Shown piece after piece: positions 23,815 to 50,332 of a stretch of DNA of 64,000 bases (position 1 is the first letter of the stretch; every line of letters begins with the position of its first letter). The DNA is taken from contig CAZALK010000020.1 of NCBI GenBank assembly GCA_964486045.1, positions 23,510 to 87,509 of the forward strand. Reading direction: 5' to 3'. The DNA is from an uncultured archaeon (GTDB taxonomy: Archaea; Asgardarchaeota; Lokiarchaeia; Sigyniarchaeales; SOKP01). A program made the position numbers and the translations under genes. Under the pieces are notes generated by a model that saw nothing but the letters and a program-made list of their open reading frames with translations, had not been told where the DNA came from and searched no databases.

Positions 23815-25281
23815 CTAAATATAAGTATGGATTAACTCCAGCAGATTTTTTGAGAAATCTGGTAAGTTTTTCTCTATTTTTTTAATTTCAAGAGATTTTT
23901 CAATAAACATTAGTAAATATAAGTTATATTTTTCAACTTGGATTTTTTTAAAAACAACTTTCTTAGAGTCGTCAGCAATTCCGGTGGATACTAAAAAATC
24001 TTGTTTCAATACTTTGAATTCCTTAAAGGTTTTATACAAGGTTTGAAAGTGAGGTGCTGAGATTTCAAAAACCCTGTCAGATATCTCAGATTTTGAAAAA
24101 TTGGATAATATTATTCCATTTTCGTTAAGTAATAAAATTGCGTCTGAATTCGTTTTTCTTGCGAATTGCTTCAATTGATTTCTGAATAATTCTCGATTAG
24201 GACTTAACTGAGAAAGTCCATATGAATAAGCAGTAATAAGACTCCAATGGTCGAAAATACTAGTTTGGAATATTTTAGTTAAAAATCGATCAGATCTCTT
24301 TTCTACCTCATCAGCAATAATTTCTAAATTTTTAAATATTTCTTTTGAACCCTTCAGATCAGGATCGAATTTATTTAAACACACAACTATGGGCGGAAAT
24401 TCATCTAATTCGACTAATATTTTCGAAATTCTTTGGAAAAGATTTAATGCTTCTTCAATTCTCTCTACATCTTGTATATCAATAAAGAAGAAAATTAGAT
24501 CAACATTATATAAATAGACTTGACTTTGCTCAAGAAATCTTTCTAAATATTTTTTTTGGCCACCTATATCCCATAGAGAGATTAACGAGTTCTGTTCTTC
24601 AAATATATTCTCTTCTGTTCTTTCAACACCTTTAGTAGGTAATGATTTGATAATTTCTGAATATTTCTTTCTGATTCCATAAAGAAAACTTGATTTACCA
24701 GCCTTATCTAATCCTGTCAATAATATTTTAATTTGTCTTTTTGGAGAAAAAGGATCTTTTAATTCTTTTGTAAACTCGAATAGTTCTTCTCTAATATCAT
24801 CCATTATTCGTTTCTGGTCATTAAATTCTTTTACATTCTGAATTTGTGTAGCTGTTTTATCGATTATAATCCTTAAATATTTCATATTTTCATAAAAAAA
24901 AACCTTATCTTCTTCGTCAATTAATACAGTTATTGTCGCAGCTAGTGCTTGACCGCGTGCTTTTTCATCAGGGATAAGAAAAAAATAAGTTAAGCCATTC
25001 AATTTTAAATCAGGAAAAGGAAGAATTCCAAAGTAGTTAACTCCTATGTCTGATCCCTGAGAATTTTGATAAACTGAATCACCCATAAGCAAACTAATAG
25101 TTTTCATAGCTATTAGAAGTCCTGATTTCTCTTCTAGGTTAGAAGGCCATATTATTCTAGGTGTTGGGCCTTTTTCATCAAAAATACTTAAAACAACCGC
25201 TTTTATTAGATTGGATTTTTTGTCACCTGTATCGTTTCCTTTCATCTTCTTCTTATTCGAATTTGAGTCGGTTTTTGCCAA
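23815..25281 (-). CDS. uDENN/longin-like domain + Arf/Rag-like small GTPase + roadblock-like domain
   Basis: SIFDEKGPTP N-domain; G1 GLDKAGKSS, G2 PTKG, G3 WDIGGQ, G4 NKFD, G5 TSI; C-terminal AILLLNENGIILS. Confidence 0.85.
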   Translation of the reverse strand: MAKTDSNSNKKKMKGNDTGDKKSNLIKAVVLSIFDEKGPTPRIIWPSNLEEKSGLLIAMKTISLLMGDSVYQNSQGSDIGVNYFGILPFPDLKLNGLTYFFLIPDEKARGQALAATITVLIDEEDKVFFYENMKYLRIIIDKTATQIQNVKEFNDQKRIMDDIREELFEFTKELKDPFSPKRQIKILLTGLDKAGKSSFLYGIRKKYSEIIKSLPTKGVERTEENIFEEQNSLISLWDIGGQKKYLERFLEQSQVYLYNVDLIFFFIDIQDVERIEEALNLFQRISKILVELDEFPPIVVCLNKFDPDLKGSKEIFKNLEIIADEVEKRSDRFLTKIFQTSIFDHWSLITAYSYGLSQLSPNRELFRNQLKQFARKTNSDAILLLNENGIILSNFSKSEISDRVFEISAPHFQTLYKTFKEFKVLKQDFLVSTGIADDSKKVVFKKIQVEKYNLYLLMFIEKSLEIKKIEKNLPDFSKNLLELIHTYI

Positions 25282-25444
25282 TGTATTCCCTTATCTCTTG
25301 CATTAAAATAAGTGATGTTAGATTTTTATTATTATCTCTAACTTATAGTTTAATAAAATCTTGAAATCACATTAATAGATCCAAAATAACAATTATTATT
25401 AAATCATTACTTTTCTCTCTGAAAAACTGATAATTAAAAAAAAA

Positions 25445-27253
25445 TTATGAAAAAAATCCCAATCTTACTAGTTTAGACGGTAAAAAGATTCTATTTACAA
25501 AATCCTCTAGAGTTAGATTACTTTTTGTAAGTTCAGTTAAAGATATATATTCAATTGCACCATTTTGGATAAACTGGTGGTAAACCTCTTGATTTTTAAC
25601 TTTTTGTATTACATTAATTTCAGAATCTTCCCGAAAATGAGCAGTATTTGTATAATATGACATTTTTCCTTTGAATTGGGGAATCGCTACTCCTGGAAAA
25701 TGTTTTAGATCTAATTTTGCAAATCTGGAGGGTGATTTTTCAGAGGTATTTTCACTTAATACATGGCGAATATTACTATTCTTAGATAGCTCTTTACAGA
25801 CTTGATTCATCTCAATTAGGATTTTTTTGCCAAAAGTGAATACATCTGAACCTTCGTGCAGCTCGTAATCTGTTAAGAATTTAATAGCTTCGTTTAAACC
25901 AATAAAACTTATTGATAAGTATTGATTTTCTAAATTATAGAGATTCTGATTCTTAATATTAGTATTAAATAACGGCAAGTGATTTGACTGTAACCTTCTT
26001 CTTATGATATCATATTTTTTTAGTAAAATCCTAGAAGATAAATTCATTTTAGCTTTGAGTATCTCTAAGAAATCATCTTCATCCTTACTCAGATAAGCAA
26101 AGCGAGGAAGGTTCAAACAAACCTCTTGAAGCATCCCTTGGTTATCATAACTAGGATAAGAAATTTTTTTACCTTTTTCATCATTGAAAAGGTGAGCATT
26201 TGAATTTAATAAAATTGGAGTTCTCATTGTTAATGTTTCATCCCAGACTTTATGATAAGCATCACCATACTTATTTAACAGTGTTTCATTAATATAAATT
26301 TCATGTTTGGGAGTATTAAATGGATTTTTATTATCATCACCTCCTTTAAAATTATAGGTAAAGGAGTTAAATATCTTCAGACAATCCTCATAATAATCTT
26401 CATAACATCCCTCGATTTTTCCAAAGGGTCCAACTGCAGGGTATTTTAATAAATATTTAACAATAGTAGGGTGAGTCATAATAGTGGTTGGAGGAATTGT
26501 CCGACCGGTTATTACTGAAAAATAATTCATTTCATAAATGAAATTCCTTATTATATGATTTAAATCTTGTTCATTAGATTCTTTAACATATGGTGCTAAG
26601 TAGATATTAATATTATTATATCCTTGACTTCCACAAATTTCATTTTGAGTTAATAATAACCATTTAATTAAATGATCGCAGGCTTCCCTTAAGTTTTTTG
26701 CTGGTTTAAGTTTGCAACAAGGAAGATTTTTATTTAGAGGTGGTAAGCCATTTTCTAAAACGATACTGGGATCCCAAATTTGAGTCAGTGGTTTTAAATC
26801 AAAATATCGCAACTTATGAATATGGATGTCTCCGTATAAATGAGCCTTGGATTCTTCATTGGTGAGAATTCTTAAATGAGCATATTCTTCAGAGATTCGA
26901 TTTGAAGCCCAATTATGTATTTTCTCGGGGTTTATCACAATTTTTGGGTAATCAACCAAACCCTTTTCGAGAATTTCTTCATAATCCATTAATGGCATTC
27001 CAATTCTAGTGTATAATTTACGTTCATTTTCAAAATGTTGTTCAGAAAGTATTGAGCATACAATTTCTCTTATATGCGGTCCAGAAAGAAATTTGATGCC
27101 AGAACTAATGATCCTTCTTACTACAAGTTCAGTAATCCTCTTAGCTTTGTCTTCACTCAAGTTAGTCTCTTTAACAATGCTTTCAAAAATTATCGGGGAG
27201 TTAAAATCTGTTAAATCCCCTTCAGTTCTGAAAACTTTTGGTAATAAATCCAT
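25445..27253 (-). CDS. Degenerate class III ribonucleotide reductase (NrdD)-like protein with ATP-cone
   Basis: ATP-cone (FLSGPHIREIVCSIL, RKLYTRIGMP), AHLYGDIHIH, KPAKN, LNLPR, IGLNE, RFAKLD, YYTN; no finger-loop Cys, Zn ribbon or RxxGY. Confidence 0.8.
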   Translation of the reverse strand: MDLLPKVFRTEGDLTDFNSPIIFESIVKETNLSEDKAKRITELVVRRIISSGIKFLSGPHIREIVCSILSEQHFENERKLYTRIGMPLMDYEEILEKGLVDYPKIVINPEKIHNWASNRISEEYAHLRILTNEESKAHLYGDIHIHKLRYFDLKPLTQIWDPSIVLENGLPPLNKNLPCCKLKPAKNLREACDHLIKWLLLTQNEICGSQGYNNINIYLAPYVKESNEQDLNHIIRNFIYEMNYFSVITGRTIPPTTIMTHPTIVKYLLKYPAVGPFGKIEGCYEDYYEDCLKIFNSFTYNFKGGDDNKNPFNTPKHEIYINETLLNKYGDAYHKVWDETLTMRTPILLNSNAHLFNDEKGKKISYPSYDNQGMLQEVCLNLPRFAYLSKDEDDFLEILKAKMNLSSRILLKKYDIIRRRLQSNHLPLFNTNIKNQNLYNLENQYLSISFIGLNEAIKFLTDYELHEGSDVFTFGKKILIEMNQVCKELSKNSNIRHVLSENTSEKSPSRFAKLDLKHFPGVAIPQFKGKMSYYTNTAHFREDSEINVIQKVKNQEVYHQFIQNGAIEYISLTELTKSNLTLEDFVNRIFLPSKLVRLGFFS

Positions 27254-27445
27254 GATGAGGTTATTATCGATTTTTTTTAGTTTTAATATTTACCTTTGAA
27301 TTATTATATTCAAAAACCTTAAAAAAAAAAATTATTAATGGATTACATTAGATGTTAATTTTACTTTTTACATGATTGTACTCAATCTTTAAATAGATCC
27401 ATAAGGAGCATTTAGTTTGAGTACTAAAGCTTTTTATAGAATTTC

Positions 27446-28273
27446 TTGACTCTCTTTATGTTATTTTATAGGGAGAACGTAAATTATTATATGTCAAAAT
27501 TATACTCATATTCCTCTTTACAACGATTTTTTAGCAGTATTTATTATATCTTGCAGGAGATTGATACAAAAATTGTTGAAGTCTGGTGTGAAATTCCAAG
27601 GATTACATTTTTTAAGAATCTTAGTAATTCTAAGCTTAGAGATTTCTTAGGGAAGTTTGAATTTATCTCCATTAAGAAGGGGAACTATATTTACTATGTT
27701 GTAATTAATAAAATATTATTTATCATCGATTGCATCAAATATTTACAATTTGACATTAAAAATCTTTCTGAAATTTTAGACTATAGTGGATTTGAGACAT
27801 TAATAAAAGAGATTTTATCTAAAAACAGTTATCGGTCAATTACAAACTTCCGATTTTCAGATAAAAATAAGGTAGGATCAGAAAATTCACAGAAAAGGTA
27901 TGAAATTGATGTTATAGGAATTTATTATAATTTTATTTTAATTATAGATGCAAAACAATGGAAACATAGAGATACGTTTGGTTCATTAAATAAAGCAGCA
28001 ACAAAGCAATATCATAGATTATTAGCCCTAAAAAGAAATCCAGGAGTCTTCGCAAAACTTATCTCTGAAATACTAGGTGAAAAACCCAATAAAAAAAAAC
28101 ACTTTCCATTAATATTAATTCCCGTTATTGTAACACAAGAAAATAATTATATTAAATTAAATGATGATCAGGTACCACTTGTTTCGATTTATGAGTTAAA
28201 TGCTTTTTTAGATGAATTACCAAACAACTTACACTATTTTAAAACCGTTCAAGTAGATAGAGTTTTTTTATAG
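27446..28273 (+). CDS. PD-(D/E)XK nuclease (NERD/Mrr-like)
   Basis: FETLIKEIL...Y, RYEIDVIG......IIDAKQW; the true start may be the ATG at 27491. Confidence 0.8.
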   Translation: MTLFMLFYRENVNYYMSKLYSYSSLQRFFSSIYYILQEIDTKIVEVWCEIPRITFFKNLSNSKLRDFLGKFEFISIKKGNYIYYVVINKILFIIDCIKYLQFDIKNLSEILDYSGFETLIKEILSKNSYRSITNFRFSDKNKVGSENSQKRYEIDVIGIYYNFILIIDAKQWKHRDTFGSLNKAATKQYHRLLALKRNPGVFAKLISEILGEKPNKKKHFPLILIPVIVTQENNYIKLNDDQVPLVSIYELNAFLDELPNNLHYFKTVQVDRVFL

Positions 28274-28343
28274 AAAAAATATTAATTTTCACCTATTTGT
28301 GAAAAATAATTAATCAATTAAAAAGATGCATCAACCCAAGATG

Positions 28344-29429
28344 TTATTTTTTTAATCCTAAATAATGTTTTACTTGTTTTTTTATAAGATTCATAGCAAT
28401 AGAAATAATACCACTCTTAACTTGAGGATGTGAAAACAGTATTAAAATCATATCTTTAAGACTCGAAGTTTCTAGATCAAGAAATGCCATATCTAAAACT
28501 CCCTCAGTACCTCTCACTGATATCGATCTTAAAGCTCCAGCACTTAAACCATCGATGATATCCGCACTTATCATTGAAAGATTTATCCCTATTGTACCAA
28601 ATAAGGATTCCGATATTCTACTTGAAATAGCTGACGCTAACATTGTCCCATCTGTTTTTATGATTGCTGATGCCTCAATTTTTGAATCTAAAGTTATCAA
28701 TTCTTTTAATATCTCATTCATCGAAGCTGGTGGTAATTTATTTTTTGGTTCTTTCTGAGAAGTTGATTTAGGTTCTTTTAGTTTTATTTTATTTACGATA
28801 ATTTTCTTTGATAGAAAACCAAGAACCTCCGACATGTCTTTCTCTAGTTTCTTCTGTTTTATAATAGCAAGATCTGAGTCTACAGTTTTAAGGGGGAGCG
28901 GAGTTGTAGATGGTTTAGGTTTCTTAATTTCAACTTCGAGAACAGATTTTTTAAGTTCTTTTAGTGCATCTGAGATAACTCCATTAGATTTAGGGATGAG
29001 AGAAATGAATTCTTTTTTGTCTGAGAGAATAGTACCTTTAAATGGTTTCGGGGTTATTTCTTGTAATATTGGGGGGGTTTTTTCTTCTAAATTGTGTTTC
29101 GTTTCTAGAGGTATTTCTGTAAGGGAATCCGATTCAATTTCTTCATTATCTTCTATTGGAATATCACCAAGCTTTGAAAAATCACTTAGTTTCTCTTCTT
29201 CTATCGGTATCTCATGTAATTCTAATTCTTCTGGTTCTAGATCTTCCGGTACTTTAGGTTCTTCTATTATTTGAGTAATAGGAACTTTTTTTGCTTTTTC
29301 TTCTTTAACGGTTTTAGGTTTTTTAGGTCTAGAGGTTCTAGTAGAAATTGGTAGTAATGCCCCACATGTTCTACAGATACGAGTTTTTTTCTCATTATTT
29401 GTTGTCCCACAGTTATTACAAATTATTAT
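28344..29429 (-). CDS. Zn-ribbon + acidic/Pro-rich linker + roadblock/LC7 domain protein (361 aa, non-ATG start)
   Basis: The frame of ORF 28344-28835 stays open upstream to the TAA at 29433-29435. It reads IIICNNCGTTN...RICRTCGALLP, with ATA at 29429 8 nt after GGAG. Roadblock motif IEASAIIKTDGTMLASA...L..ISVRGTEG. Confidence 0.8.
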   Translation of the reverse strand: MIICNNCGTTNNEKKTRICRTCGALLPISTRTSRPKKPKTVKEEKAKKVPITQIIEEPKVPEDLEPEELELHEIPIEEEKLSDFSKLGDIPIEDNEEIESDSLTEIPLETKHNLEEKTPPILQEITPKPFKGTILSDKKEFISLIPKSNGVISDALKELKKSVLEVEIKKPKPSTTPLPLKTVDSDLAIIKQKKLEKDMSEVLGFLSKKIIVNKIKLKEPKSTSQKEPKNKLPPASMNEILKELITLDSKIEASAIIKTDGTMLASAISSRISESLFGTIGINLSMISADIIDGLSAGALRSISVRGTEGVLDMAFLDLETSSLKDMILILFSHPQVKSGIISIAMNLIKKQVKHYLGLKK

Positions 29430-29665
29430 TGATTATTCTCCCCCAGTATGATTTTAGCACTAATACTACAGTAAATTTTAGAAATTTTTAGTTATTAGTT
29501 TTATAGTGTTTAATTTATAAATAGAAATTTGATATTATTAATATTAGCAACTTGAATTTGCCAATTTAATTTGTACTTTTAATGAATATTTTTAAAATTC
29601 CTAATTCTAATTACAGTCATTAAAGTTGAATAAAAAATAGTCATAAATTATTTTAGAAACTGCTA

Positions 29666-30640
29666 TTATTTATAGAGGATCTCTTTCAATATTTTTGCGA
29701 AAGCTTCAAAGTCTTCTTTGTTAAAAACAGGATTATCTTTTAATAGAAGTAAGTAATAGGGTGTGGACTCTTTTCGTAACGAAATCTGTTTAAACATGAA
29801 ATTTTTCCCATATCTTTGTACAATCATTCTTTCCTCGTACTTTTTCTCCAAAACGCTTGTGGATTGAAAGGAATCATGAAGAGTGAGAAAATATGGGGTT
29901 GAAGCGGTGAGTAGGTGCCGAGTCTCATCATCCTTATAATAAGATCCAATTATTAGTGAATTGTCGTCAATTACTACTACCCCACCGGAATCTACCTTTT
30001 TAGCAAATTCTACAATTGTTTTTTCAATTAATTCAGATTTTGGATAGAGACTTAAAAGGATTTCAGACATGGCTGCTATTATTGATGAGAATTCATAAAT
30101 GGAGGTTTCATAGAAATAAATTTCCTTATAATCTGTAGCGTTTCTTATTAGTTCCTTTAAATCTATTATAAGATTTTCCATTTCATTTAAGGCACCCCTC
30201 TTTAAAGCAGGATCATATTTATGAAGGAAAACATAGATTGGTGGTTCAATTTCCAATTTGTTAAACTGCTCAATAACATCTTTAAAATAACTTATTGCTT
30301 CAGGTATTCGCGGTTTATTCTGGATATCAATAACATAGATGGCAATTTCAGTTCCATCAAAGTATTTATTTGGCTTTTTTAAATAGGAGATCCTATAGCT
30401 AACCTGCCCGCCTAAATCCCATTCACTTATCTCTTTTCCTAGAAAATCGAATATTCTCCTTTGCGCTCCTCTCGTAGGAGATAATACAGCAATTTTTGAG
30501 AATTCTCTTTGGAGAGATAAAATTATGCTTGTCTTGCCTGCATCATCTAGCCCCGTAAATAAAATCTTTGAAGATTCGGGTTCAGCTTCTAGATCATCTT
30601 TTTTTAAATACAAGATTGATTGTTTAAGATTTTTCTCCAT
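29666..30640 (-). CDS. Arf/Rag-like small GTPase with C-terminal roadblock-like domain
   Basis: GLDDAGKTS, PTRG, WDLGGQ, HKYD, ETSI; C-terminal GVVVIDDNSLIIGSY; AGGTGA RBS. Confidence 0.88.
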   Translation of the reverse strand: MEKNLKQSILYLKKDDLEAEPESSKILFTGLDDAGKTSIILSLQREFSKIAVLSPTRGAQRRIFDFLGKEISEWDLGGQVSYRISYLKKPNKYFDGTEIAIYVIDIQNKPRIPEAISYFKDVIEQFNKLEIEPPIYVFLHKYDPALKRGALNEMENLIIDLKELIRNATDYKEIYFYETSIYEFSSIIAAMSEILLSLYPKSELIEKTIVEFAKKVDSGGVVVIDDNSLIIGSYYKDDETRHLLTASTPYFLTLHDSFQSTSVLEKKYEERMIVQRYGKNFMFKQISLRKESTPYYLLLLKDNPVFNKEDFEAFAKILKEILYK

Positions 30641-30734
30641 AATTCAATTTCACCTATAATCTTATAATTAGAAATTTACAAATATATTCTTTATCAAAAT
30701 ACAAAATTATATTATTGTTTATTTAGATTACGGA

Positions 30735-32090
30735 TTAAAATTTGTTTTGGAAAAATAATTTGAAATCCTGATAATTTCTAATTTCTACCGGACTTGGGAT
30801 CTCTTTGTTATTTTGGATAATATTCAACGAATTTGGTATTTTTGGTGTGATTTTAATTAATGAGATAATCTCGTTAGGGAACTTTGCAGGATCTGCCGTT
30901 TCGAAAATTATACCCTTGCATTTTGCATCTAAAGTATAATTATTTCTGTAAATATCTAAAGATGCCCATCCAACAGCCCCATGAGGTTCGATGATCCTGT
31001 GATATCTTTTGTAAAAATTTATAATTGTCTGTTTTGTTAACTTATCATTTATTGAATATGACACGATTTCACGTCTAATTTTGCCTAAATTTGGATATTT
31101 TTGCATTACACCAGTCTCATCAATCTGACCGTTATACAAATCTATAATTCGTGCAAAGTTCGAAGGGTGGCCAACGTTCATAGCATTACTAATACAATTT
31201 TTTGAAGGTTCTACTTTTTCATATATACCTGTTTCTAAAAATCTTGGAAATTCGTTGTTCTCATTTACTGCTGAGATAAATTTTCGTACAGGTAAACCCA
31301 TTTTATATGCTATTAATCCACCCATAAGATTTCCAAAGTTCCCAGAAGGCACTGAAAAAATAACTTTCTCATCAGTTTCTTCAATAACACGGGAATAACT
31401 ATAGAAATAATAAATAGCTTGAGGGATTAATCTCCCAATATTTATTGAATTCGCTGAAGAGAGCCCAGAGTCTTTTAAATCAGGATCAGCAAAAGCAGAT
31501 TTGACTATACTTTGACAATCATCAAATTTCCCATTAATCCCAATTGCTGTTATGTTCTTTCCAAGTGTGCTCATTTGTTTTCTTTGTAAATCACTTATTT
31601 CATTTCTAGGGAATAAGACGATAACTTTTATTCTTTTAACATCAAAAAATGCTTGAGCTACAGCTCCACCAGTGTCTCCTGATGTTGCAGTAAGAATCAC
31701 ACTTTTCTTATCTTCAATTTCAAGAAAATATTCCATAATTTTTGCGAGTGTTCGAGCCCCAAAATCTTTAAAACTCGCGGTTGGACCTTGGTCTAGATAA
31801 CAGACATAATCATTTTCGCGAATTTTTTCAATGGGCACTAAAAAATTAAGAGCATCTTTTAAAATTTTCTTGAGGTCATTATTAGGTATACAGCCACCTA
31901 TAATTTCAGAAATAACCTCAAATCCAACATCATTTATCTTCAAATTTTTAAAGTTATTGATAATTTCCATAGATAATTTAGGAATTTTATTCAGCATATA
32001 TAATCCTTTATCTAACGCTTGCCCTCTTAGTACCGCTGTTTTAAAATCAACATCCGGGGTTCTATAATTTGTGGAATGATATTTTATCAT
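30735..32090 (-). CDS. thrC: Threonine synthase
   Basis: GPTASFKDFG, ATSGDTGGAVA, FDDCQ, SANSINIGRL, VPSGNFGN, SNAMNVGHPSNF, TADPAKF. Confidence 0.95.
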   Translation of the reverse strand: MIKYHSTNYRTPDVDFKTAVLRGQALDKGLYMLNKIPKLSMEIINNFKNLKINDVGFEVISEIIGGCIPNNDLKKILKDALNFLVPIEKIRENDYVCYLDQGPTASFKDFGARTLAKIMEYFLEIEDKKSVILTATSGDTGGAVAQAFFDVKRIKVIVLFPRNEISDLQRKQMSTLGKNITAIGINGKFDDCQSIVKSAFADPDLKDSGLSSANSINIGRLIPQAIYYFYSYSRVIEETDEKVIFSVPSGNFGNLMGGLIAYKMGLPVRKFISAVNENNEFPRFLETGIYEKVEPSKNCISNAMNVGHPSNFARIIDLYNGQIDETGVMQKYPNLGKIRREIVSYSINDKLTKQTIINFYKRYHRIIEPHGAVGWASLDIYRNNYTLDAKCKGIIFETADPAKFPNEIISLIKITPKIPNSLNIIQNNKEIPSPVEIRNYQDFKLFFQNKF

Positions 32091-32257
32091 AGATTTTTCA
32101 AAACAATTTCAATCGTTATAATAAAATCAATCAACGCTCAAAAATTAAATACTTATGACTTATCTTTAAAATTTTTTGAAGACAATTTTAATTCCTTAAA
32201 ATAGTTTAATACATAATAATGATTCATATCTCTGAAAACCATTGAGGTGACAATAAT

Positions 32258-33007: not shown

Positions 33008-33056
33008 TAATTAAGTTGAAATTATGACAAATTCTACCATTAATCAAACGGGTGTC

Positions 33057-33581: not shown

Positions 33582-33619
33582 CTTAATTATCCCTCCGTTT
33601 ATTGTAATTAAAAGAATTT

Positions 33620-34633: not shown

Positions 34634-34732
34634 TTGCCTCAGGAGATCTTTTTTATTCTAAGATTTAGTTGATAAATTAAATTAGTCGGCTACCATACAA
34701 TTACCACGTTAATTATAAGAAATTAATTCCTT

Positions 34733-35224: not shown

Positions 35225-35279
35225 AATTTAATCATTTCAAATTTTATTTTTTTTGCAGTTATATTGAATATGCTACTTC

Positions 35280-40765: not shown

Positions 40766-40892
40766 CCTCGGATCAACATTCAGTATAATTTATTAAAATT
40801 ATGAATAAGATTTTTTTTCTATGAAATATTGTAAATGTTGAAGAATAAAGTTAATTTTTAAAAAAATAAAATTTCATAAAGGGAGAATTAAT

Positions 40893-41747: not shown

Positions 41748-41802
41748 CAAACTTTTTTCTTTATTATAATTTTTTTGTAAATAAATACAAACTGCTTGTA
41801 TT

Positions 41803-42321
41803 ATGAGAGAGATAAAGGTTAAAAATTCAAAGATCAGACTTGTTCAAGGAGATATTACAGAATTGGTGATAGATGCGGTTGTAAATGCAGCGAATTCTCA
41901 GCTTAGACTTGGTGGAGGAGTTGCAGGAGCAATTAGAAGGAAAGGTGGGCCGACAATTCAAGAAGAATGTGACGTAATTGGTGAAACATTTGTAGGTGGG
42001 GCTGTTATTACAACCGGTGGAAATTTGAAAGCTAAACATGTAATCCATGCTGTGGGTCCTAGGATGGGTGAAGGAAATGAAGATACTAAATTAAGGAATG
42101 CCACTTTGAATAGTTTAAGGTTAATGGATGCTTATAGATTAAAAACTATTGCCTTTCCAGCAATATCTACTGGAATTTTTGGGTATCCAATCGGTAAATG
42201 TTCAAAAATCATGATTACGACAGCAAAAGAATATTTAAGTACTAAAACTCAAATTAATGAAGTTATTTTTTGCCTATATACGAGTTCAGATCTCGAAGTT
42301 TTTGAAAAAGAGTTAAAATAA
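41803..42321 (+). CDS. Macro-domain protein (O-acetyl-ADP-ribose deacetylase-like)
   Basis: QGDIT, DAVVNAAN, GGGVAGAI, VIHAVGP, AFPAISTGIFGYP. Confidence 0.95.
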   Translation: MREIKVKNSKIRLVQGDITELVIDAVVNAANSQLRLGGGVAGAIRRKGGPTIQEECDVIGETFVGGAVITTGGNLKAKHVIHAVGPRMGEGNEDTKLRNATLNSLRLMDAYRLKTIAFPAISTGIFGYPIGKCSKIMITTAKEYLSTKTQINEVIFCLYTSSDLEVFEKELK

Positions 42322-42433
42322 TTCATTCTTGACGTTACTTTTTTTATTAAAGTTATATTTATAATCAGAAGAAGAATAAATTATAGTAAGATATTTTCTC
42401 AATATAATTACAGTTTATGGGTTTATCTTTAAG

Positions 42434-45346
42434 ATGAGTGATTATAAGTATATAAAATTCTTTGAAGATTTAAGAGTGGGAGATGTACCTCTTGTAGGAG
42501 GGAAAAACGCTTCACTTGGTGAATTATTGAGCTTTGGAATGCCTGTTCCATTTGGTTTTGCAATAACTGTGAACGCTTTTGATTATGTGTTAGATACTAA
42601 CTTCTTTACTATAAAAGATAAGGAAGTGTCACTTAGGGAGTTGATTGCAAGAGATATTAGAAGGATTTCTAACGAATTGAAATCAGAAGATATAAAAGTC
42701 GTTGAGAAAGTAGACAAAATTTGCGCTAATATTCGCTATGTTATCGAACAATCAAAAATTCCGGATTCTCTCTCAGATGAAATCTTACAGGCTTATTCAA
42801 AGTTAAATGAAAAATTAGGGACAAAATCTACATTCGCAGTTAGGAGTTCCGCCACAGCTGAGGATCTACCTGATGCATCGTTTGCAGGACAACAAGATAC
42901 GCATTTAAATATCTCGGGTGAAGATAATATTTTAGAATATGTTTTGAAGGATATGGCTTCTATTTTTACTACGAGAGCAACTATGTATCGTGAACGTGCG
43001 GGTTTTGACCACTTTTCTGTAAAGTTAAGTGTTTGTGTCCAGTTTATGGCAGGTGGTTTGGGTGGTGTTAAGTCTTCTGGTGTAATGTTCACTGAAGACC
43101 CTGATTCAGGTAATCCAAATGTTATTTCAATTAGAGGAACATGGGGCTTAGGAGAATTGATCGTGCAAGGTGTTGAAAAAGGAGACGAATTCTTAGTATT
43201 CAAACACGACCCCAAAGGACTAAGGATAATTCGTCGTGAATTAGTAAATAAAGAAAAAATGATGATATTTACTAATAAGACTGAAAGTATAGGTACTGAA
43301 GTCGTTCCGGTACCGGAAGACAAACAAAGAATGTATAGTTTAACAGAAAAGGAAGTTTTAACCTTAGCAGAATATGCACTAAAGATTAGAGAACATTATG
43401 GTAAAAGAATGGATATTGAATGGGCTGTTGGGAACAATAATGAAGTATACATCGTTCAAGCACGTCCCGAGACAGTTCATAGCATGAAAGGAGATGTAGA
43501 GGAAATATTTTATCTTCTTGAAGATCCCATGAAATTAATTCAGGATGGTTTATTAGTAGAAAATTCTGGAATTGCAATTGGTCGAAGAATTGGATATGGA
43601 AAAGTTAAGGTTATCGAATCAATTAGTGATGCAAATTTATTAAGAGAAGGAGATATTCTTATTACTGAGGAAACAAATCCAGATTGGACATCCTATATGC
43701 AAAATCTTGGTGGTGTTATCACGGAACGCGGTGGCCCAACCTGTCATGCGGCCATAGTTTCAAGAGAATTAAATATTTCGTCAATTGTTGGGGCTGATGA
43801 CATTATACAGGTAATGAAGGAAAAGCAACGAGATGGGATTGACTATGTAACAATAGATTGTAGTGAAGGGGAACCAAGAATATGGTTAAAAGATGTAGAA
43901 TATGACTTTGATACAATTGAATTCGCTAAACTCCCACAAACAAAAACTAAGGTATTGGTAAATTTAGGAATACCGAAGGGAGCTCTTTCCTCAGGGAAAT
44001 ATCCCGATGGAACGGGGTTAGCAAGATTAGAATTTATAATCAACGATGAGGCCCAAATCCATCCAAATGCTTTAATTGATTTCGAAGCTTTGATTTTGCG
44101 TCTTGAAATTTTACTCGATCAAAGAAATAAAATTGAAAACATAAAAAAAAGTGATTTGTATCCTAAAGATCCTTTTAATCAAGAAATATATCAATTAAGG
44201 CAGACATTAGATAAAATCAGAGAAGTTACTTTTGGGTACGATGATAAAAAAGAATTTTATGTTGATAAATTAGCTGAAGGAATTGCTACTATTGCTGCGG
44301 GAGTATGGAAAACTTTACCAGATGGCAGTGCTGCTGAATGTGTAGTAAGGCTTTCAGACTTTAAGACCAATGAATATGCAAATTTAATTGGGGGTTGGAT
44401 CTATGAAGGAGAAGAAAATAACCCCCTTTTGGGCTTCAGGGGTTGTTCTCGCTATTCCCACGATGAGTTTCAAGAAGCGTTCCTCCTGGAATTAAGAGCT
44501 ATCAAAAAAGCTCGTGGTTGGGGGCTGTCCAATATTATTCCGATGCTTCCGTTCTGTCGCTCCCATAACGAGGCAGCTCGGATATTAGAAATCATGGAAA
44601 GTGAAGGATTAGTTCGAGGAGAAGATGGATTAAAGGTTTATGTTATGGCAGAAATCCCTTCGAATATTATATGTGCTGACTTATTCAGTGAAATTCTTGA
44701 CGGATTTTCCATAGGATCGAATGATTTAACGATGCTGACCTTTGGCGTTGACCGGGATGAAGCAAAGCTAATACCAATCGCTAACGAATTCAAATATACA
44801 ACAAATAGTGAAGCTTTAAGAAGATCATTAAAACACCTCATTAAGACTGCTCATGAATATAATAGAAAAGTTGGAATTTGCGGTCAAGCTCCGAGTGATG
44901 ATCCCGATTTCTTAAGGTTCCTTGTCCAAGAGGGTATAGACTCCATCTCATTAAATTTCGACACATTCGCAAAAGGGAGGATTAATACGTGGCGTACTGA
45001 AGTAATTGAGAATAAACTTAAGGATGATGAAGAAGGAAAAAGCAAATCTTACGGTTTTCTTAGTGATTGTGATAATTTAATTAACAACATCAGAATTCCT
45101 CGGGGAAAATTACGAAATTTGGTGAGAAAGCAAGGAAAAGAAGTCGATAAGAAACTTGGAGAATATACTGAACGTTATAATCAAATATTCCAAGAGATTC
45201 AAGATATTTCAGCGAAATTTGTTGAAGACATAGCTCAAACACAAAAGTTTGAGGATGTGTTTAAGAAATATGATGGTAAAATGACAATTTTTGAAGAGGA
45301 AATCCCCAAACTTCAGAAAGAAATTAGACGATTCAAGATATATTAA
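42434..45346 (+). CDS. ppsA: Phosphoenolpyruvate synthase (pyruvate, water dikinase)
   Basis: VGGKNASLGE, AVRSSATAEDLPDASFAGQQDT, DIEWA, GGPTCHAAIVSRE, RLSDFKTNEY, NPLLGFRG, FSIGSNDLT, GICGQAPSD. Confidence 0.95.
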   Translation: MSDYKYIKFFEDLRVGDVPLVGGKNASLGELLSFGMPVPFGFAITVNAFDYVLDTNFFTIKDKEVSLRELIARDIRRISNELKSEDIKVVEKVDKICANIRYVIEQSKIPDSLSDEILQAYSKLNEKLGTKSTFAVRSSATAEDLPDASFAGQQDTHLNISGEDNILEYVLKDMASIFTTRATMYRERAGFDHFSVKLSVCVQFMAGGLGGVKSSGVMFTEDPDSGNPNVISIRGTWGLGELIVQGVEKGDEFLVFKHDPKGLRIIRRELVNKEKMMIFTNKTESIGTEVVPVPEDKQRMYSLTEKEVLTLAEYALKIREHYGKRMDIEWAVGNNNEVYIVQARPETVHSMKGDVEEIFYLLEDPMKLIQDGLLVENSGIAIGRRIGYGKVKVIESISDANLLREGDILITEETNPDWTSYMQNLGGVITERGGPTCHAAIVSRELNISSIVGADDIIQVMKEKQRDGIDYVTIDCSEGEPRIWLKDVEYDFDTIEFAKLPQTKTKVLVNLGIPKGALSSGKYPDGTGLARLEFIINDEAQIHPNALIDFEALILRLEILLDQRNKIENIKKSDLYPKDPFNQEIYQLRQTLDKIREVTFGYDDKKEFYVDKLAEGIATIAAGVWKTLPDGSAAECVVRLSDFKTNEYANLIGGWIYEGEENNPLLGFRGCSRYSHDEFQEAFLLELRAIKKARGWGLSNIIPMLPFCRSHNEAARILEIMESEGLVRGEDGLKVYVMAEIPSNIICADLFSEILDGFSIGSNDLTMLTFGVDRDEAKLIPIANEFKYTTNSEALRRSLKHLIKTAHEYNRKVGICGQAPSDDPDFLRFLVQEGIDSISLNFDTFAKGRINTWRTEVIENKLKDDEEGKSKSYGFLSDCDNLINNIRIPRGKLRNLVRKQGKEVDKKLGEYTERYNQIFQEIQDISAKFVEDIAQTQKFEDVFKKYDGKMTIFEEEIPKLQKEIRRFKIY

Positions 45347-45536
45347 TCAGCCAAACTTAAAAAATGCTATTCTTTCTATTTGGTAGTATACATTCCAATA
45401 TAAAATGACCCTCACTAAAGCATGAGATTTGGAAATTTGGTATTTCCTAAAAATAAATTCAAAAACAAAAAAATTAAATTTTAAATAATATTTCAAAATT
45501 TAAATTCCTCATTAAATACACTATTTTTGGTGATTT

Positions 45537-45818
45537 TTGTCCATGGCAAACGGATTTAACGACGTAATAAAAACAGCTTTCGAAGAAGTTGAAAATCTTT
45601 TAAATGGGTTGTTAGGTGACCGAAGCGTACCCCGAAACATTAAAAGAGTTGCTCAGAAAGGTATCGATGAACTTAATAAAGAGGATGAAACCGCTGGTGT
45701 GCTTGCCAGTAATGTTATGTATATGGTTGATGATTTAAGTTTAGATCCAAATATACCCTTTCATTCCCGTACTACTATTTACAGAATTATTTCTATTTTA
45801 GAAAAAATTAAAGATTAA
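45537..45818 (+). CDS. UPF0147-family protein
   Basis: DRSVPRNIKRVA...DPNIPFHSRTTIY.IIS.LE. Confidence 0.9.
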   Translation: MSMANGFNDVIKTAFEEVENLLNGLLGDRSVPRNIKRVAQKGIDELNKEDETAGVLASNVMYMVDDLSLDPNIPFHSRTTIYRIISILEKIKD

Positions 45819-45937
45819 ATCATTTCAAGAGCAATATTTAACTAATTATTTTTATTTGAAAAATTGGGGATTAATCAACTCCTATTTATTAAATTTCATT
45901 TTATTAATACAAGAATTTATAGAATCCTAATACCTAT

Positions 45938-46011
45938 GGGAAGGTGGTCTAGATTGGTATGATTCTTGGTTCGGAACCAAGAAACCGGGGGTTCAAATCC
46001 CCCCTTTCCCA
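45938..46011 (+). tRNA. tRNA-Pro(CGG), intronless, CCA not encoded
   Basis: Acceptor GGGAAGG/CTTTCCC + A73; anticodon arm CTTGG-TTCGGAA-CCAAG (CGG at 45972-45974); T arm GGGGG-TTCAAAT-CCCCC; TTTATA about 20 nt upstream. Confidence 0.93.
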
Positions 46012-46101
46012 ATAAATCTAACCCATTCATTTATAAAGTGAAATGTATTTAATTAGATAGGAATTAAGCAATTTATTTAATTTAATTGGGGACTTTGAAT
46101 T

Positions 46102-46806
46102 ATGGCATTAGATCTAAACGGATGGATTGATGGTATAACAGCCACAGGTGTAGTAGTTTTTGGTATATTTGTAGGTTTATTCTTTTTTTACGAGTCAAGA
46201 AAGAGGAATGCAAAACTTTTAGCTTATTTGGGTTTAGCTAATTTGTTTGCTGGTCTTATGTTTTTAGGTGTGTTTTTAGATTTCCTTTTTGTACTCATAT
46301 TACAGCAGAATATTGTTAATAATGGAATTGTAGCATTACTTTCTTATATCTGGTTTGCTCCTGTAATAATATCAGCGATGTATATTGGAGCTGAGCTCTT
46401 AGCTCCAAAAATAAAAAAACCTATATTCATAATCTTCTTAATTATTTCCATTATCTTTGAAATTGTAATATTCATAGATCGTACAAATTCATTTAATTTC
46501 GTCCCTGCTATACCTATCCCTCCACCTATAAATTTAATTGATTATAATGTCAGTCTTCTCTCTTTAGCTGGAATACTTATGGGTGGGTTATTATTACTGG
46601 TTTTGGTATTTTTAGGATTAGGATTTTTATATAAAGCATTGCAATCTTCAGGAGTAATTCGAAAAAATTTCTTACTATTATCTGCTGGTTCAATTTCTTT
46701 CTGTATTTTTGGGTTATTAGAAGGTTTAATTGCTCCGGGACCGCTTGTAATTTTTATAAGGTTGGGTTATGGTAGTTCCTTTATACTCATGTATTTCGGT
46801 CTGTAA
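46102..46806 (+). CDS. Seven-TM membrane protein with no cytoplasmic output domain
   Basis: Seven hydrophobic segments counted by eye; basic loops after TM1 and TM5. Confidence 0.75.
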   Translation: MALDLNGWIDGITATGVVVFGIFVGLFFFYESRKRNAKLLAYLGLANLFAGLMFLGVFLDFLFVLILQQNIVNNGIVALLSYIWFAPVIISAMYIGAELLAPKIKKPIFIIFLIISIIFEIVIFIDRTNSFNFVPAIPIPPPINLIDYNVSLLSLAGILMGGLLLLVLVFLGLGFLYKALQSSGVIRKNFLLLSAGSISFCIFGLLEGLIAPGPLVIFIRLGYGSSFILMYFGL

Positions 46807-46914
46807 AAGATATCCTTAAGTTCTTTTTTTTTACTCAGCGAATAATATTTATATGTAAAAATTAAATTAATTGTTAAGAGTGAATTATTTATTGGTAGTT
46901 TTTAGTAAAATCCT

Positions 46915-47967
46915 TTGAAAACCATGGAAAGACAAATAATTAAAGCTGTAGTATACAGTAATTTAGATGAAGAATTGGGTCCCGATCCTAAAGCTTTTAC
47001 ACCTGATAATTTTCCTCTAGTAAATTTAATGCTTATTAGTATGAAAACCTTTGCCGTTCTTACTGGTGAGAAAGGATTTATACCGGAGTCACTAGTTATT
47101 CTTCCGTTTCCATCACTTAAACTAAAGGGTTTAATTAAGTATATTAATTGGGAGGACCCAAAGAAACGAGGGGGTTTTGGCCAATCTAATATTGCGATAT
47201 TTTTCCAAGAAATGGATGATGCAATTTTTTATAAGTATTTAAAGGAACTCTCAGCTCCGTTTAACGATGTAGCCCAAAACATCGCATTTTTAGAAAAATC
47301 TAATGCTCCTAAGGAAGATTATATTAATGAGTTAATAAATCTTCAAAATGCATTAACCGAAATTTTAGAAGAATTAAGAAGCATAGAGCTTTCGAAGTCA
47401 AACGTTGAGTCGTTGGAAGGGAGAATTAAGGATAGGAATTTGATAGATTTTCAATTTAAAATTATTCTTGTAGGGGATCCAACGGTAGGAAAAACAAGTC
47501 TAATTCTAAGATATACTGATAATGCTTTTAGGCGAGCATATGTTTCAACTATGGGTGTTCATGTTTCAAATAAAATATTTAAAGCTGAAGATTCTGCGAT
47601 TATCCAGCTTGTTTTATGGGACATAGGAGGTCAAGAAAGATTTAAAATAATGAGGCAACAGTTTTATCAAGGATCTGATGCAGTATTTATAATTTTTGAC
47701 CTTACTAATCCCGATTCATTTAGAGGTGTGCCTAATTGGTATTCAGATATACAAAAACTATTAAAATTAAATAAAGAAGATACTCTAGGTTTCCTAGTTG
47801 GAAATAAGAGGGATTTAGATAAGGACATAAAAATAAAATCTGAAGAGGCTCAAAATCTGGCCGAACAGTTCAATTTAGAATATCTTGAAACTTCAGCACT
47901 CTCAGGAGAAAACGTTTATGCCGTTTTCAGCAATATCGCCAATTTACTCTATGAATCGAGAAAATAA
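46915..47967 (+). CDS. uDENN/longin-like domain + Rab-like small GTPase
   Basis: SNLDEELGPDP, ILPFP, RGG; GDPTVGKTS, STMG, WDIGGQERF, NKRD, ETSAL; no C-terminal Cys. Confidence 0.88.
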   Translation: MKTMERQIIKAVVYSNLDEELGPDPKAFTPDNFPLVNLMLISMKTFAVLTGEKGFIPESLVILPFPSLKLKGLIKYINWEDPKKRGGFGQSNIAIFFQEMDDAIFYKYLKELSAPFNDVAQNIAFLEKSNAPKEDYINELINLQNALTEILEELRSIELSKSNVESLEGRIKDRNLIDFQFKIILVGDPTVGKTSLILRYTDNAFRRAYVSTMGVHVSNKIFKAEDSAIIQLVLWDIGGQERFKIMRQQFYQGSDAVFIIFDLTNPDSFRGVPNWYSDIQKLLKLNKEDTLGFLVGNKRDLDKDIKIKSEEAQNLAEQFNLEYLETSALSGENVYAVFSNIANLLYESRK

Positions 47968-48146
47968 TTTTGGGTGAATAGATCGTGAAAGGATGGTTTC
48001 ACGAACTTATAATTCTCTAAGAAATCTATCATTTAGATTAAGAATTTTTTTAAATTCAGACGGTTAACAGTGAAGTTTAAACTATAAATTGCCCGATTAA
48101 ATTATATTAATTATTTCATTATTTTTCTATAAAGAGAGTAGATAAT

Positions 48147-48980
48147 TTGTATATTGATTGTCATGCACACTTATTTTTTAACCCTATTCACACAGAAGCT
48201 ATTGATGAAGATATCACAGGTGTTATCCCAACTCCTAATACAGATTTTATAAGTAAAACGATCTCTAACGCAGAAGAGAAAGGAGTTAGTCATTTTGTTG
48301 GAGTAATAAGCGATCCTAATAATTTTCCCTATTATCAGATTCAATTGGAGTTAGAAAATATTATACACATAATCGGGATCTCAAGGGGTAATGCACTTGG
48401 AGACCAAACACATATGTTTTCTCTACTGGAAAAGGAAATAGAAACAAAAATACCTCAAGGTATAGGAGAGATTGGTTTAGATTATGAATATGGTTTTGAT
48501 AAGTTAAATATCCATGAAAAAAACTTGATGAAAAAAAAACAGCAGGAATTATTTGGAAAGTAAATTCAAATAGCAAAAGAAATTAATATCCCTATTGTCG
48601 TGCATGCTGGGTATGGAACAGATAAAGATATTGTTACAATATTAAAACAAGAACAAGCTCAAGATGTGGGGGGGCAAATTCATGGGTATATGTCTAATGA
48701 GGTGTTAGTTTCTGAACTACTTGATATTGGTTTTTACTTTTCATTTGGATATTTTCACACGAGAGAAGACGAATTCAAAAAAATAATTGAATTAGTCCCT
48801 TTAGAACACCTTCTTGCTGAAACTGATTATCCATATCATTTACTGGATTCTCCAAAGAGATTTATATTTCCAGAAGATGTAGTTTTAATAACTGACGAGA
48901 TTGTTACTTTAAAAGTGATTGATTCTAAAATTTTTTGTAATCAGGTAATGAGAAATGCTAGACGACTCTTTAGATACTAG
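48147..48980 (+). pseudogene. tatD: TatD-family hydrolase with an in-frame TAA at 48561-48563
   Basis: DCHAH, GIGEIGLD, LFGK*IQIAKEINIPIVVH (TAA where TatD usually has Gln/CAA), IHGY, AETDYPY; both halves in one frame. Confidence 0.85.
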
Positions 48981-49282
48981 ATACGACATAGAAACCGAGA
49001 AGATCCAACTCACTGAATATTTAGAAATGTTAAGATTTATTTTTACTTTTAGTTTTAAATTCAAAAATCTTAAATAAAAATTACTTATTATACTGAACTA
49101 ATAAAAATTTTCGTCAAAAGAAGAGATAACAGATGAAGGTTGTCTTATTTAAGACAATTTTTTAAATATTTTAGATGTAAAGATTCTTAATTAAAATAAC
49201 ACCAATATTTTATAAAACTACATATATAAGTTTACAAATGAAGAAAGACTAACTATTTTGTTATATAACGCATTTCTTTATT

Positions 49283-50332
49283 ATGATGAAAGAGATTATT
49301 AAATCTATTGTCTACACCTCAATGGATGAGAGGTTAGGACCGAGTCCGCATTTATGGTTGCCATTAGATTTACCCGAAGATATTCGAATGGGAGTAAGCA
49401 TAAAATCAATTACGATGCTTACAACAGATCAAGGAATTATCCCTAAATCATTAGTAATCATGCCCTTCCCTTCTTTTGGACAAAAAGGATTGATAAAATA
49501 TATTGAACGTGCAGATGATTCTCGCCGCGGAGGTATAGCATTATCATCAATTACACTATTATTTGATGAAGCCGATGATCTTATTTTCTATAAATACTTG
49601 GATTACCTTGAAACTGCGTTTTCTAAAAGCGCCCAGAAAATTATTGAATTAGAAAATCAGAATGCAGAAAGCGTTGAGATTTATGCAGAGATAAATATCC
49701 TTCGAAAAAACCTCACAGAAATTTTAAATGATTTACAAAACAAAGAAAAATCAATTATTGAAGGAAAGGCGTTTCCTAAAGAAGAAACTGATAAAGAGTT
49801 AGTTGGATTTCATTCCAAAATTATTGTATGTGGAGATCCATCTGTAGGTAAAACCAGTACTATCCTACGATTTACTGATAACGCTTTCATCCGTACTTAT
49901 ATCCCTACTTTAGGTGTAAGTATTTCTGAGAAAACTATCAAAATAAAAGAAGAGTATGTGAATTTAATCTTTTGGGATATAGCTGGACAAAGTAAATTTG
50001 AAATGATGAGGAGACATTTTTATCAAGGTGCAGAAGCGGTAATTGTTATATTTGATCTAACAAATCGTAAGTCATTTGAAAGTGTTTCAGGTTGGTATAA
50101 GGACATAAAGAGGTACATCGAAATCTACCAAAACACTTTAATAGGGTTTGTTTTAGGAAATAAAGAGGATTTAGTTGGTGAGAGGAAAGTTTCAACTGCA
50201 GAGGCTAGTAGTGTAGCCAAAAGTCTAAACATTGGATACGTCGAGACTTCAGCTAAGACTGGTAAAAATGTTGAACAGTTATTTTATAGAATAGCAGATT
50301 CTTTATTAAAAACAAAAAAAAAAAATGATTAA
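49283..50332 (+). CDS. uDENN/longin-like domain + Rab-like small GTPase
   Basis: SMDERLGPSP, IMPFP, RRGG; GDPSVGKTS, PTLG, WDIAGQ, NKED, ETSAK; paralogue of 46915-47967. Confidence 0.88.
   Translation: MMKEIIKSIVYTSMDERLGPSPHLWLPLDLPEDIRMGVSIKSITMLTTDQGIIPKSLVIMPFPSFGQKGLIKYIERADDSRRGGIALSSITLLFDEADDLIFYKYLDYLETAFSKSAQKIIELENQNAESVEIYAEINILRKNLTEILNDLQNKEKSIIEGKAFPKEETDKELVGFHSKIIVCGDPSVGKTSTILRFTDNAFIRTYIPTLGVSISEKTIKIKEEYVNLIFWDIAGQSKFEMMRRHFYQGAEAVIVIFDLTNRKSFESVSGWYKDIKRYIEIYQNTLIGFVLGNKEDLVGERKVSTAEASSVAKSLNIGYVETSAKTGKNVEQLFYRIADSLLKTKKKND

Follow-up and report, generated by a model that had tools for sequence, protein, structure and literature searches.

A longin domain of the folliculin/NPRL2/SMCR8 kind joined to Rag-like and Rab-like G domains in a Loki-type Asgard archaeon

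Eukaryotic nutrient signalling and trafficking depend on longin-domain GTPase-activating proteins (GAPs), those of folliculin (FLCN), GATOR1 and C9orf72-SMCR8. FLCN-FNIP (Lst7-Lst4) acts on RagC/D, the NPRL2-NPRL3 pair of GATOR1 acts on RagA/B, and C9orf72-SMCR8 acts on Arf1 and Rab8/11; the catalytic complexes of these GAPs are large, transient and hard to trap. A 64,000-nucleotide stretch of contig CAZALK010000020.1 from an uncultured Asgard archaeon (the window, to which all positions refer unless another locus is named) encodes four proteins, P0001 to P0004, each of which begins with a related N-terminal domain (N-domain) and continues into a small-GTPase domain (G domain) of either the Rag-like or the Rab-like class. 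The locus raises the question of what this N-domain is, and what it could do to a G domain that is carried on the same chain.

The four open reading frames (ORFs) are intact, as judged by the ORF listing and the translations of the window, and the first ~150-170 residues of their products can be aligned with one another. BLASTP similarity between the N-domains ranges from E 1e-17 for P0001 versus P0004 to E 7e-4 for P0002 versus P0003, which is the most diverged pair; the similarity among the four is far beyond chance. An earlier note on this DNA, made from the sequence and its list of ORFs, had described a shared domain of ~150 residues in the four proteins, and most of its motif list stands: (D/G)E..GP.P....P, ILP(F/Y)P or IMPFP, GL/SL..Y and E.....(F/L)Y are all present in the alignment, and RG(G/Q) is found in three of the four proteins, P0002 being the one that lacks it. 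The motif given as I(A/S).K has to be widened, as P0004 reads VS.K.

Relatives of the N-domain were gathered by a profile search of 1.84 billion cluster representatives, which returned 245 sequences at E <= 0.001. An AlphaFold2 model of the N-domain built from an alignment of 89 relatives (predicted local distance difference test, pLDDT, 90.6; predicted template modelling score, pTM, 0.87) follows the longin order β1-β2-α1-β3-β4-β5-α2-α3 with a five-stranded sheet (strands E7-16, E19-26, E64-70, E75-85 and E93-103; helices H32-47, H104-129 and H134-155). When the PDB was searched with VIA-align, the best match was the Lokiarchaeota longin dimer 8yqg (Z 18.3, root mean square deviation 2.2, 140 aligned residues), followed by Lst4 (Z 13.0-13.4), C9orf72-SMCR8 (12.6), FLCN (12.6), GATOR1 (11.4-12.1), FNIP2 (10.9) and DENND1A (10.6), with the SEA complex within the Z 10.4-13.0 group. 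The generic longins of TRAPP, VAMP7, Ykt6 and the adaptors ranked lower, at Z <= 9.5. A second structural search placed Lst4, C9orf72-SMCR8, FLCN, FNIP2, NPRL2/3 and DENND1 at ranks 2-20 (Z 9.5-13.4) and VAMP7, TRAPP and Ykt6 at Z <= 9.2, and a Foldseek search was in accord with the structural ranking. By shape, the ESM Atlas returned a Heimdall cluster (template modelling score, TM, 0.80) with Pfam Folliculin on 23% of its members, along with clusters of C9orf72 (0.76), the uDENN domain of FLCN/SMCR8 (0.75), SMCR8 (0.73) and Avl9. A feature search of the same atlas with the N-domain gave sub-threshold leads alone (0.80-0.85), among them one cluster with NPR2 on 19% of its members.

At the sequence level, Pfam Folliculin (PF11704) matches 23 of the 89 relatives at E <= 0.1 (best E 1e-6), and Pfam C9orf72-like matches 2 of the 89. 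P0001 itself scores 18.6-19.7 bits against Folliculin, for which the curated cut-off is 23.3, and the relative P0128 reaches 24.5 bits as a whole protein with no single stretch passing alone. A profile search of solved-structure sequences found 8yqg as the sole solved relative (E 3e-17), the remaining matches being coiled-coil noise from the linker helix. Taken together, these results indicate that the N-domain is, as modelled, a longin closest to the eukaryotic GAP-longin/uDENN group of the FLCN/NPRL2/SMCR8 type. The earlier note had assigned it to this kind of longin and had named a non-longin fold as the outcome that would overturn the assignment; structure prediction returned a longin, and the assignment is further borne out by the weak but recurrent Folliculin matches and by the two sequence features described below. 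Its label of a 'uDENN/NPR2-like longin' is correct as to the longin. The four proteins are not DENN proteins, because they have no DENN module and the uDENN-like longin is the sole shared part: no DENN-family Pfam match follows the longin in any of the four, where a helical linker and the G domain are found instead.

The first of these features is a Gly-Pro (GP) motif between β1 and β2 of the model, which is present in all four proteins and of which the Gly and the Pro are each kept in 82 of the 89 relatives. The second is an Arg-Gly loop between β4 and β5, found in P0001 (Arg109), P0003 (Arg85) and P0004 (Arg82) and absent in P0002. About three quarters of the relatives have the Arg-Gly, and the loop Arg is retained in 28/33 Rab-fused, 25/30 G-domain-less and 14/26 Rag-fused copies. 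According to a report in Traffic (2025; PMC12290439), a GP before strand 2, beside the catalytic Arg, is specific to the longins of FLCN, NPRL2, SMCR8 and C9orf72 and is absent from those of FNIP2, NPRL3, DENND, TRAPP and adaptins. The earlier note had taken GP as an established mark of the NPRL2, DENN, SMCR8 and C9orf72 longins together; on the evidence of that report, the premise is sound for FLCN, NPRL2, SMCR8 and C9orf72 and fails for the DENND family, as well as for FNIP2 and NPRL3. The same report states that GP and Arg are both present in a class of Asgard longins and asks whether the partners of these longins are Arf-related or Rag GTPases; the word 'fused' does not occur in its main text. 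SMCR8 Arg147 points at the γ-phosphate mimic on Arf1 (PMC8213707). From the fold, the position of the loop and the Pfam Folliculin match, which covers the β4-β5 Arg loop, we infer that the loop Arg is a candidate counterpart of FLCN Arg164, NPRL2 Arg78 and SMCR8 Arg147.

The G domains fall into two classes, as the earlier note had read from their motifs, and alignment and Pfam agree that one N-domain family is fused to both. P0001 and P0002 match Pfam Gtr1_RagA (E 5e-25, residues 185-399, 88.6 bits, and E 2.5e-18, 66.8 bits, respectively; cut-off 22), each with an Arf match too, whereas the Pfam match of P0003 (E 3e-45) and P0004 (E 6e-48) is to the Ras family. The solved structures nearest to the G domain and C-terminal domain of P0001 are the Lokiarchaeota Rag-like GTPases 8yl2 (E 3e-32) and 8zla/9m28, after which come Arf, RagA and Gtr1; the alignment extends into the C-terminal domain of the latter two (residues 184-402 to RagA 8-224; 185-424 to Gtr1 4-237), a roadblock by way of which diverged Rag/Gtr paralogues form heterodimers. 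For the G domain of P0004 the nearest solved structures are all Rabs (Rab1, Rab6, Rab43, Rab10 and Rab8, E ~1e-34 to 1e-36), with Rab1a as the best match (E 5e-36). Both P0003 and P0004 end in basic tails and lack a C-terminal prenylation Cys, and since this Cys is missing we term them 'Rab-like' and not bona fide Rabs. The G3 glutamine (WD[IL][GA]GQ) is kept in all four G domains, so that an Arg provided in trans would be enough to make up the standard catalytic site. A single-sequence AlphaFold2 model of full-length P0004 was unusable (pLDDT 38.6).

The presence of the loop Arg in P0001 and its absence from P0002 reflect a wider division. In the N-domain tree the Rag-fused N-domains form two clades, A with P0001 and B with P0002. 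All 11 members of clade A have an Ala-Arg-Gly loop, and none of the 14 members of clade B has the Arg-Gly dipeptide; the G4 motif of clade B is often a degenerate SKxD. P0002 itself retains the GP (Gly22-Pro23), has lost the Arg loop, carries an insert of ~18 residues after β2 and has SKGD as its G4. Matches to P0002 were found in 58 of the 61 genomes of the order in our sample, and a typical genome of the order has exactly two of them; these are the B orthologue and its A paralogue, which frequently lie within a few kb of each other. P0001 and P0002 probably pair through their longins. Between the two genes, the minus strand (28344-30640) encodes a third Rag-like GTPase, a 324-residue protein without an N-terminal longin (29666-30640; Gtr1_RagA E 2e-24), followed by a 163-residue ORF with no Pfam match.

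The two Rab-fused genes form a conserved tandem pair. Of 38 related loci gathered with P0004 as the query, about two dozen have a P0003 orthologue directly upstream of, and co-oriented with, the orthologue of P0004. We aligned 20 full-length tandem pairs (21 rows in each orthologue alignment): Arg85 and the GP are invariant in the P0003 orthologues (21/21), and position 82 of the P0004 orthologues is Arg in 14 of 21 and Lys in the other 7. Directly upstream of the P0003 orthologue, and co-oriented with it, 22 of the 38 loci have a gene for a multi-pass membrane protein that is ~100-250 bases from the tandem pair in most loci. The version in the window matches no Pfam family. At 63-83% identity, the membrane protein is at least as conserved as the tandem GTPases, and it may anchor or control the Rab-like pair.

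Modelled together, P0003 and P0004 gave a complex with an interface score (ipSAE) of 0.70 (0.74, 0.70 and 0.69 in individual runs), compared to 0.00 for the best control; 58 of 80 solved complexes come up to this mark, as do 2 of 110 mismatched pairs. Contact agreement between runs was at least 43%, and the pLDDT of the partners was at least 70. The confident contacts are made by α1, β3 and α2 of each longin, which lie against the same elements of the other, and this α1/β3/α2 face is the usual dimer face of longin and roadblock domains. The model and the gene order support pairing of P0003 with P0004 through their longins, with heterodimer and homodimer not distinguished. Of the earlier note's suggestion that these are heterodimerising GTPases, the dimerisation through longins is thus supported by the model for the Rab-like pair, and the choice of a different partner is not singled out by it.

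Other features of these loci are worth recording. Larger paralogues of the membrane protein (~350 residues, 30-38% identical) are encoded a few kb downstream of the pair in loci L012, L013, L015, L017, L020, L023 and L024. Between P0003 and P0004 lies a tatD-like gene (48147-48980, plus strand), the frame of which is broken by an in-frame TAA at 48561-48563 (FGK*IQIAKE) and both halves of which match Pfam TatD_DNase; a pseudogene, an error of assembly and read-through are all conceivable. A BLAST comparison of the read-through frame with the related loci found no match, so the pair is separated there by something else. One contig with a longin-Rab-like pair (L032) is filed under the name of a bacterial metagenome-assembled genome (MAG), Candidatus Deferrimicrobium, and several other pair-bearing contigs are labelled Thor-, Hermod- or Hodarchaeota despite 60-66% identity to Loki-type proteins. 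These odd labels are probably binning or labelling artefacts.

How could the longin and the G domain work together? The mechanism we favour, to which we give an even chance, is that the longins form pairs and that a tethered G domain hydrolyses GTP faster under the action of the Arg of one chain. As is usual for longin and roadblock domains, the pairing would be side by side, between P0003 and P0004 and probably also between P0001 and P0002, and the paired longins would form a platform that carries the tethered G domains. The conserved Arg of one partner (P0001 in one pair, P0003 in the other) would enter the nucleotide pocket of a G domain and speed up GTP hydrolysis, while the Arg-less or Arg-relaxed partner (P0002 or P0004) would take the role of FNIP, NPRL3 or C9orf72. 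The result would be a built-in off-switch, similar to the action of FLCN-FNIP on RagC, NPRL2-NPRL3 on RagA and SMCR8-C9orf72 on Arf1. This mechanism is favoured because the pattern of Arg-plus and Arg-minus paralogues mirrors FLCN/FNIP, NPRL2/NPRL3 and SMCR8/C9orf72, and because the G domains keep the G3 glutamine.

Several points weigh against it. Most eukaryotic longin platforms are guanine nucleotide exchange factors (GEFs) or scaffolds, not GAPs. The confident contacts of the complex model are between the longins alone, with no confident docking of a G domain, and the model does not separate a heterodimer from homodimers because close paralogues and likeness to solved longin dimers also pass. 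The P0001 and P0002 genes are 11 kb apart and divergent and do not form an operon. By sequence, the N-domain profile (full or core-only) did not reach the FLCN, NPRL2 and SMCR8 chains in solved-structure sequences, and 8yqg, which it did reach, has the GP and no Arg at the loop in the profile alignment. Finally, the models given for strain MK-D1 by Tran et al. (PMC10933270) are homodimers.

Some of these points would be expected if the longin were a mere dimerisation domain or scaffold, or a GEF-like platform in the style of DENN, TRAPP or Mon1-Ccz1, an explanation that we consider possible but rather less probable than an Arg acting within a longin pair. Here the longin would stand in the role of the Rag C-terminal roadblock, the Arg-Gly loop would serve the structure or the binding of some other partner, and GTP would be hydrolysed either by the G domain on its own or with the help of a separate GAP. 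Confident contacts restricted to the longins fit this explanation, as does 8yqg, the closest relative of known structure, which was deposited as a longin dimer and aligns without the Arg. It would also account for clade B, half of the Rag-fused family, being conserved without Arg-Gly; DENND1, a GEF, is among the structural neighbours (Z 10.6), and a GEF role for the Asgard DENN/longin module has been proposed by Liu et al. It is more difficult to reconcile with the combination of GP and loop Arg, reported in PMC12290439 as specific to GAP longins and absent from those of DENND, TRAPP and adaptins, or with the invariance of the Arg in P0003 orthologues and in clade A. The presence of the Arg in one paralogue and its absence from the other, a pattern shared with FLCN/FNIP, NPRL2/NPRL3 and SMCR8/C9orf72, also weighs against it.

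The distribution of the family provides further evidence on how longin and G domain are related. Among the best 150 of the 245 relatives, 61 have a Rab-like G domain (~335-365 residues), 29 have a Rag-like one (~460-580 residues) and 60 have none; many of the last group are fragments, and some are roadblock-longin proteins or other fusions. In the N-domain tree, a single change of state separates Rag-fused from Rab-fused N-domains, and the roadblock-longin proteins branch next to the Rag-fused clade, as its sister group. The shuffled module of the earlier note, in the sense of a domain exchanged time and again between the two kinds of GTPase, was therefore rejected: with one Rag/Rab switch on the tree, the module has not been repeatedly shuffled and each fusion is old. 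As judged by sequence, the longin-Rag-like and the longin-Rab-like architectures are each a conserved family, and the four genes are two ancient paralogue pairs.

In a phylum-wide sample of 201 genomes, 102 contain the N-domain family, among them all 40 that belong to the same family as the window, in which the number of copies per genome is 2-6. In other Asgard families, five genomes contained 23 matching ORFs, none of them with a G domain; thus, among the genomes examined, the GTPase fusions are limited to the Loki-type order. Forms of the longin family without a G domain include roadblock-longin (8yqg), longin-TrmB and PAS/kinase proteins; in other Asgard families the longin also occurs as a stand-alone domain. 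Since, in these genomes, the fusions are seen in the Loki-type order alone and the longin is G-domain-less elsewhere, the fused state may be derived rather than ancestral, and the idea put forward in the earlier note, that these genes are a precursor of the DENN-Rab and GATOR-Rag pairs, is not borne out.

The same tree bears on another explanation, which we regard as improbable, namely that the fused longin acts on a different GTPase and that its own G domain controls the activity of the longin, as in a GTPase cascade. Its clients could include the unfused Rag-like GTPase at 29666-30640 and any of the numerous further small GTPases that the genome encodes. In eukaryotes every GAP longin acts in trans, and proteins of the same longin family exist without a G domain, so action in trans is required in those proteins. 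Furthermore, the third Rag-like GTPase, which has no longin, sits between P0001 and P0002. However, one change of state is enough for the N-domain tree to match the GTPase class to which each longin is fused, which suggests long co-evolution of longin and G domain, and both the one-A/one-B pattern and the tandem-pair pattern are more simply explained by partnership within each pair.

Partnership within pairs, with an Arg of one longin acting on a tethered G domain, could also be taken further than we have done above. In its fullest form there would be two self-contained, obligately heterodimeric GAP-plus-GTPase switches, P0001/P0002 and P0003/P0004, the second docked on the seven-helix membrane protein, each with an Arg on one longin that fires the G domain of the partner, and fission of such fused proteins would have given rise to the longin GAPs of eukaryotes and to the Rag, Arf and Rab proteins on which these act. 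P0001 plus P0002 may then be the two-chain equivalent of FLCN-FNIP (or NPRL2-NPRL3) plus RagA-RagC. We are doubtful that this fullest form is correct.

The longin-GTPase (LG) and longin-GTPase-roadblock (LGR) architectures have already been published (Klinger 2016; Liu 2020; Tran 2024). For Lokiarchaeum, 41 longin-like domains were reported, and five of these have an Arf-like GTPase as their fusion partner (Klinger 2016, cited after PMC4917890). MK-D1 (Ca. Prometheoarchaeum syntrophicum) has GTPases of LG and LGR types, for which longin-mediated dimers were modelled and which may need GAPs, according to Tran et al. (2024, PMC10933270), and the study of Liu et al. (bioRxiv 10.1101/2020.10.19.343400) reports abundant Asgard NPRL2-like longins fused to two-component domains. 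The MK-D1 LG and LGR proteins resemble those of the window in both architectures, come from the same archaeal class and are likewise predicted to form longin dimers. However, in the accessible parts of these three papers the fused longin is not classed as the GP/Arg GAP type, and the Arg-keeping and Arg-less clades, the tandem Rab-like pair and the upstream membrane protein are not described.

The Asgard FLCN/SMCR8-type longins of PMC12290439 and the NPRL2-like longins of Liu et al. share with the window proteins the GP before strand 2, the loop Arg and structural similarity to FLCN, SMCR8 and NPRL2. PMC12290439 leaves it open whether Arf-related or Rag GTPases are the partners, whereas the longins of the window share a chain with a Rag-like or a Rab-like G domain. 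The eukaryotic GAP complexes provide the nearest non-archaeal folds (Z 10.9-13.4) and share the GP, a candidate Arg finger, the combination of one Arg-bearing with one Arg-less longin, and clients of the Rag, Arf and Rab classes. Unlike these complexes, the window proteins have no DENN/NPRL C-terminal module; a G domain follows the longin, which places a putative GAP and its client on one chain, and sequence identity between the two groups of longins is 8-15%. The Lokiarchaeota Roadblock-Longin protein of 8yqg is the best match by fold and the sole solved match by sequence and keeps the GP, but its longin comes after a roadblock domain and not before a GTPase, and it aligns without a loop Arg. 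Deposited structures thus exist for a Loki longin dimer (8yqg) and for Loki Rag-like GTPases (8yl2, 8zla/9m28). What is new here is the explicit link between the GP/Arg class of longins and both fused GTPase classes, together with the asymmetry of the A/B and tandem paralogues, the tree with its one Rag/Rab switch, the restriction of the fusion to one lineage and the conserved gene for a membrane protein next to the Rab-like pair.

The features of the locus are collected in Table 1. The genome comprises 5.18 Mb in 45 contigs with ~30% G+C, the window being within contig C20, and the closest relatives of the window genes come from MAGs titled Promethearchaeota or Promethearchaeia (Loki-type Asgard archaea). 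DNA of the window is present in marine-sediment metagenome runs, one of them probably its source, with no RNA run listed. Two of the start codons are probably slightly downstream of the ORF starts: that of P0003 is likely at 46924, because Met4 is invariant among P0003 orthologues, and P0001 has an ATG available at codon 13.

Table 1. Positions of the four longin-GTPase genes and of the neighbouring membrane-protein gene in the window
Feature	Position	Strand	Description
P0001	23815-25281	-	488 aa; longin, Rag-like G domain, C-terminal (roadblock-like) domain; 'A-type' LGR; Arg-Gly loop present
P0001 longin	24757-25209	-	aa 25-175; Gly38-Pro39; Arg109 (codon 24955-24957)
P0002	36338-37837	+	499 aa; longin, Rag-like G domain, C-terminal domain; 'B-type' LGR
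Multi-pass membrane protein	46102-46806	+	234 aa; ~7 hydrophobic segments; directly upstream of P0003, co-oriented
P0003	46915-47967	+	350 aa; longin aa ~6-165 (Gly22-Pro23; Arg85, codon 47167-47169), helical linker, Rab-like G domain aa 182-344; first gene of the tandem pair
P0004	49283-50332	+	349 aa; longin aa ~3-160 (Gly19-Pro20; Arg82, codon 49526-49528), helical linker, Rab-like G domain aa 179-341; second gene of the tandem pair

A profile of the four N-domains found six members of the family in the 5.18-Mb genome. The four described here lie within one 26.5-kb stretch, and the other two are on contigs C14 and C6. The C14 copy (L001 5222-5944, minus strand) is a shortened duplicate of the P0001 longin, ~82% identical, with no GTPase behind it; a Cys-containing tail of ~55 residues follows, and the copy adjoins fragments of methyltransferase genes. 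Either part of the P0001 gene was duplicated recently or a stand-alone longin is emerging here. The C6 member is a distant one, in a frame of ~1,650 residues (L002 3431-8374; G000:C6:93430-98373, plus strand) with the order longin (EGP, RGG), G domain, second longin-like domain and many PAS repeats. This frame has one in-frame TAA (L002 4187-4189) in the middle of the G domain, the second such codon among the few genes inspected in this genome, after that of the tatD-like gene. Another distant member of the family, P0069, is a longin-TrmB fusion. Near P0001, the minus strand encodes a 212-residue protein with a TrmB-type winged helix at its C-terminus (21745-22383), which the N-domain profile did not pick up, and a 602-residue NrdD-like protein (25445-27253) that matches positions 8-494 of the 562 of the Pfam NRDD profile, the C-terminal end of the profile being uncovered.

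Collectively, our results place functional links between longins and Rag-like GTPases, and between longins and Rab-like GTPases, before the eukaryotes, without implying that the fused form is ancestral. They also offer a candidate partner for the GP/Arg longins, encoded in the same polypeptide, for the Rag-like as well as the Rab-like class. The natural Arg-plus/Arg-minus pairs would provide a small, soluble two-protein system in which the mechanism of the longin Arg finger and of the GP motif could be studied.

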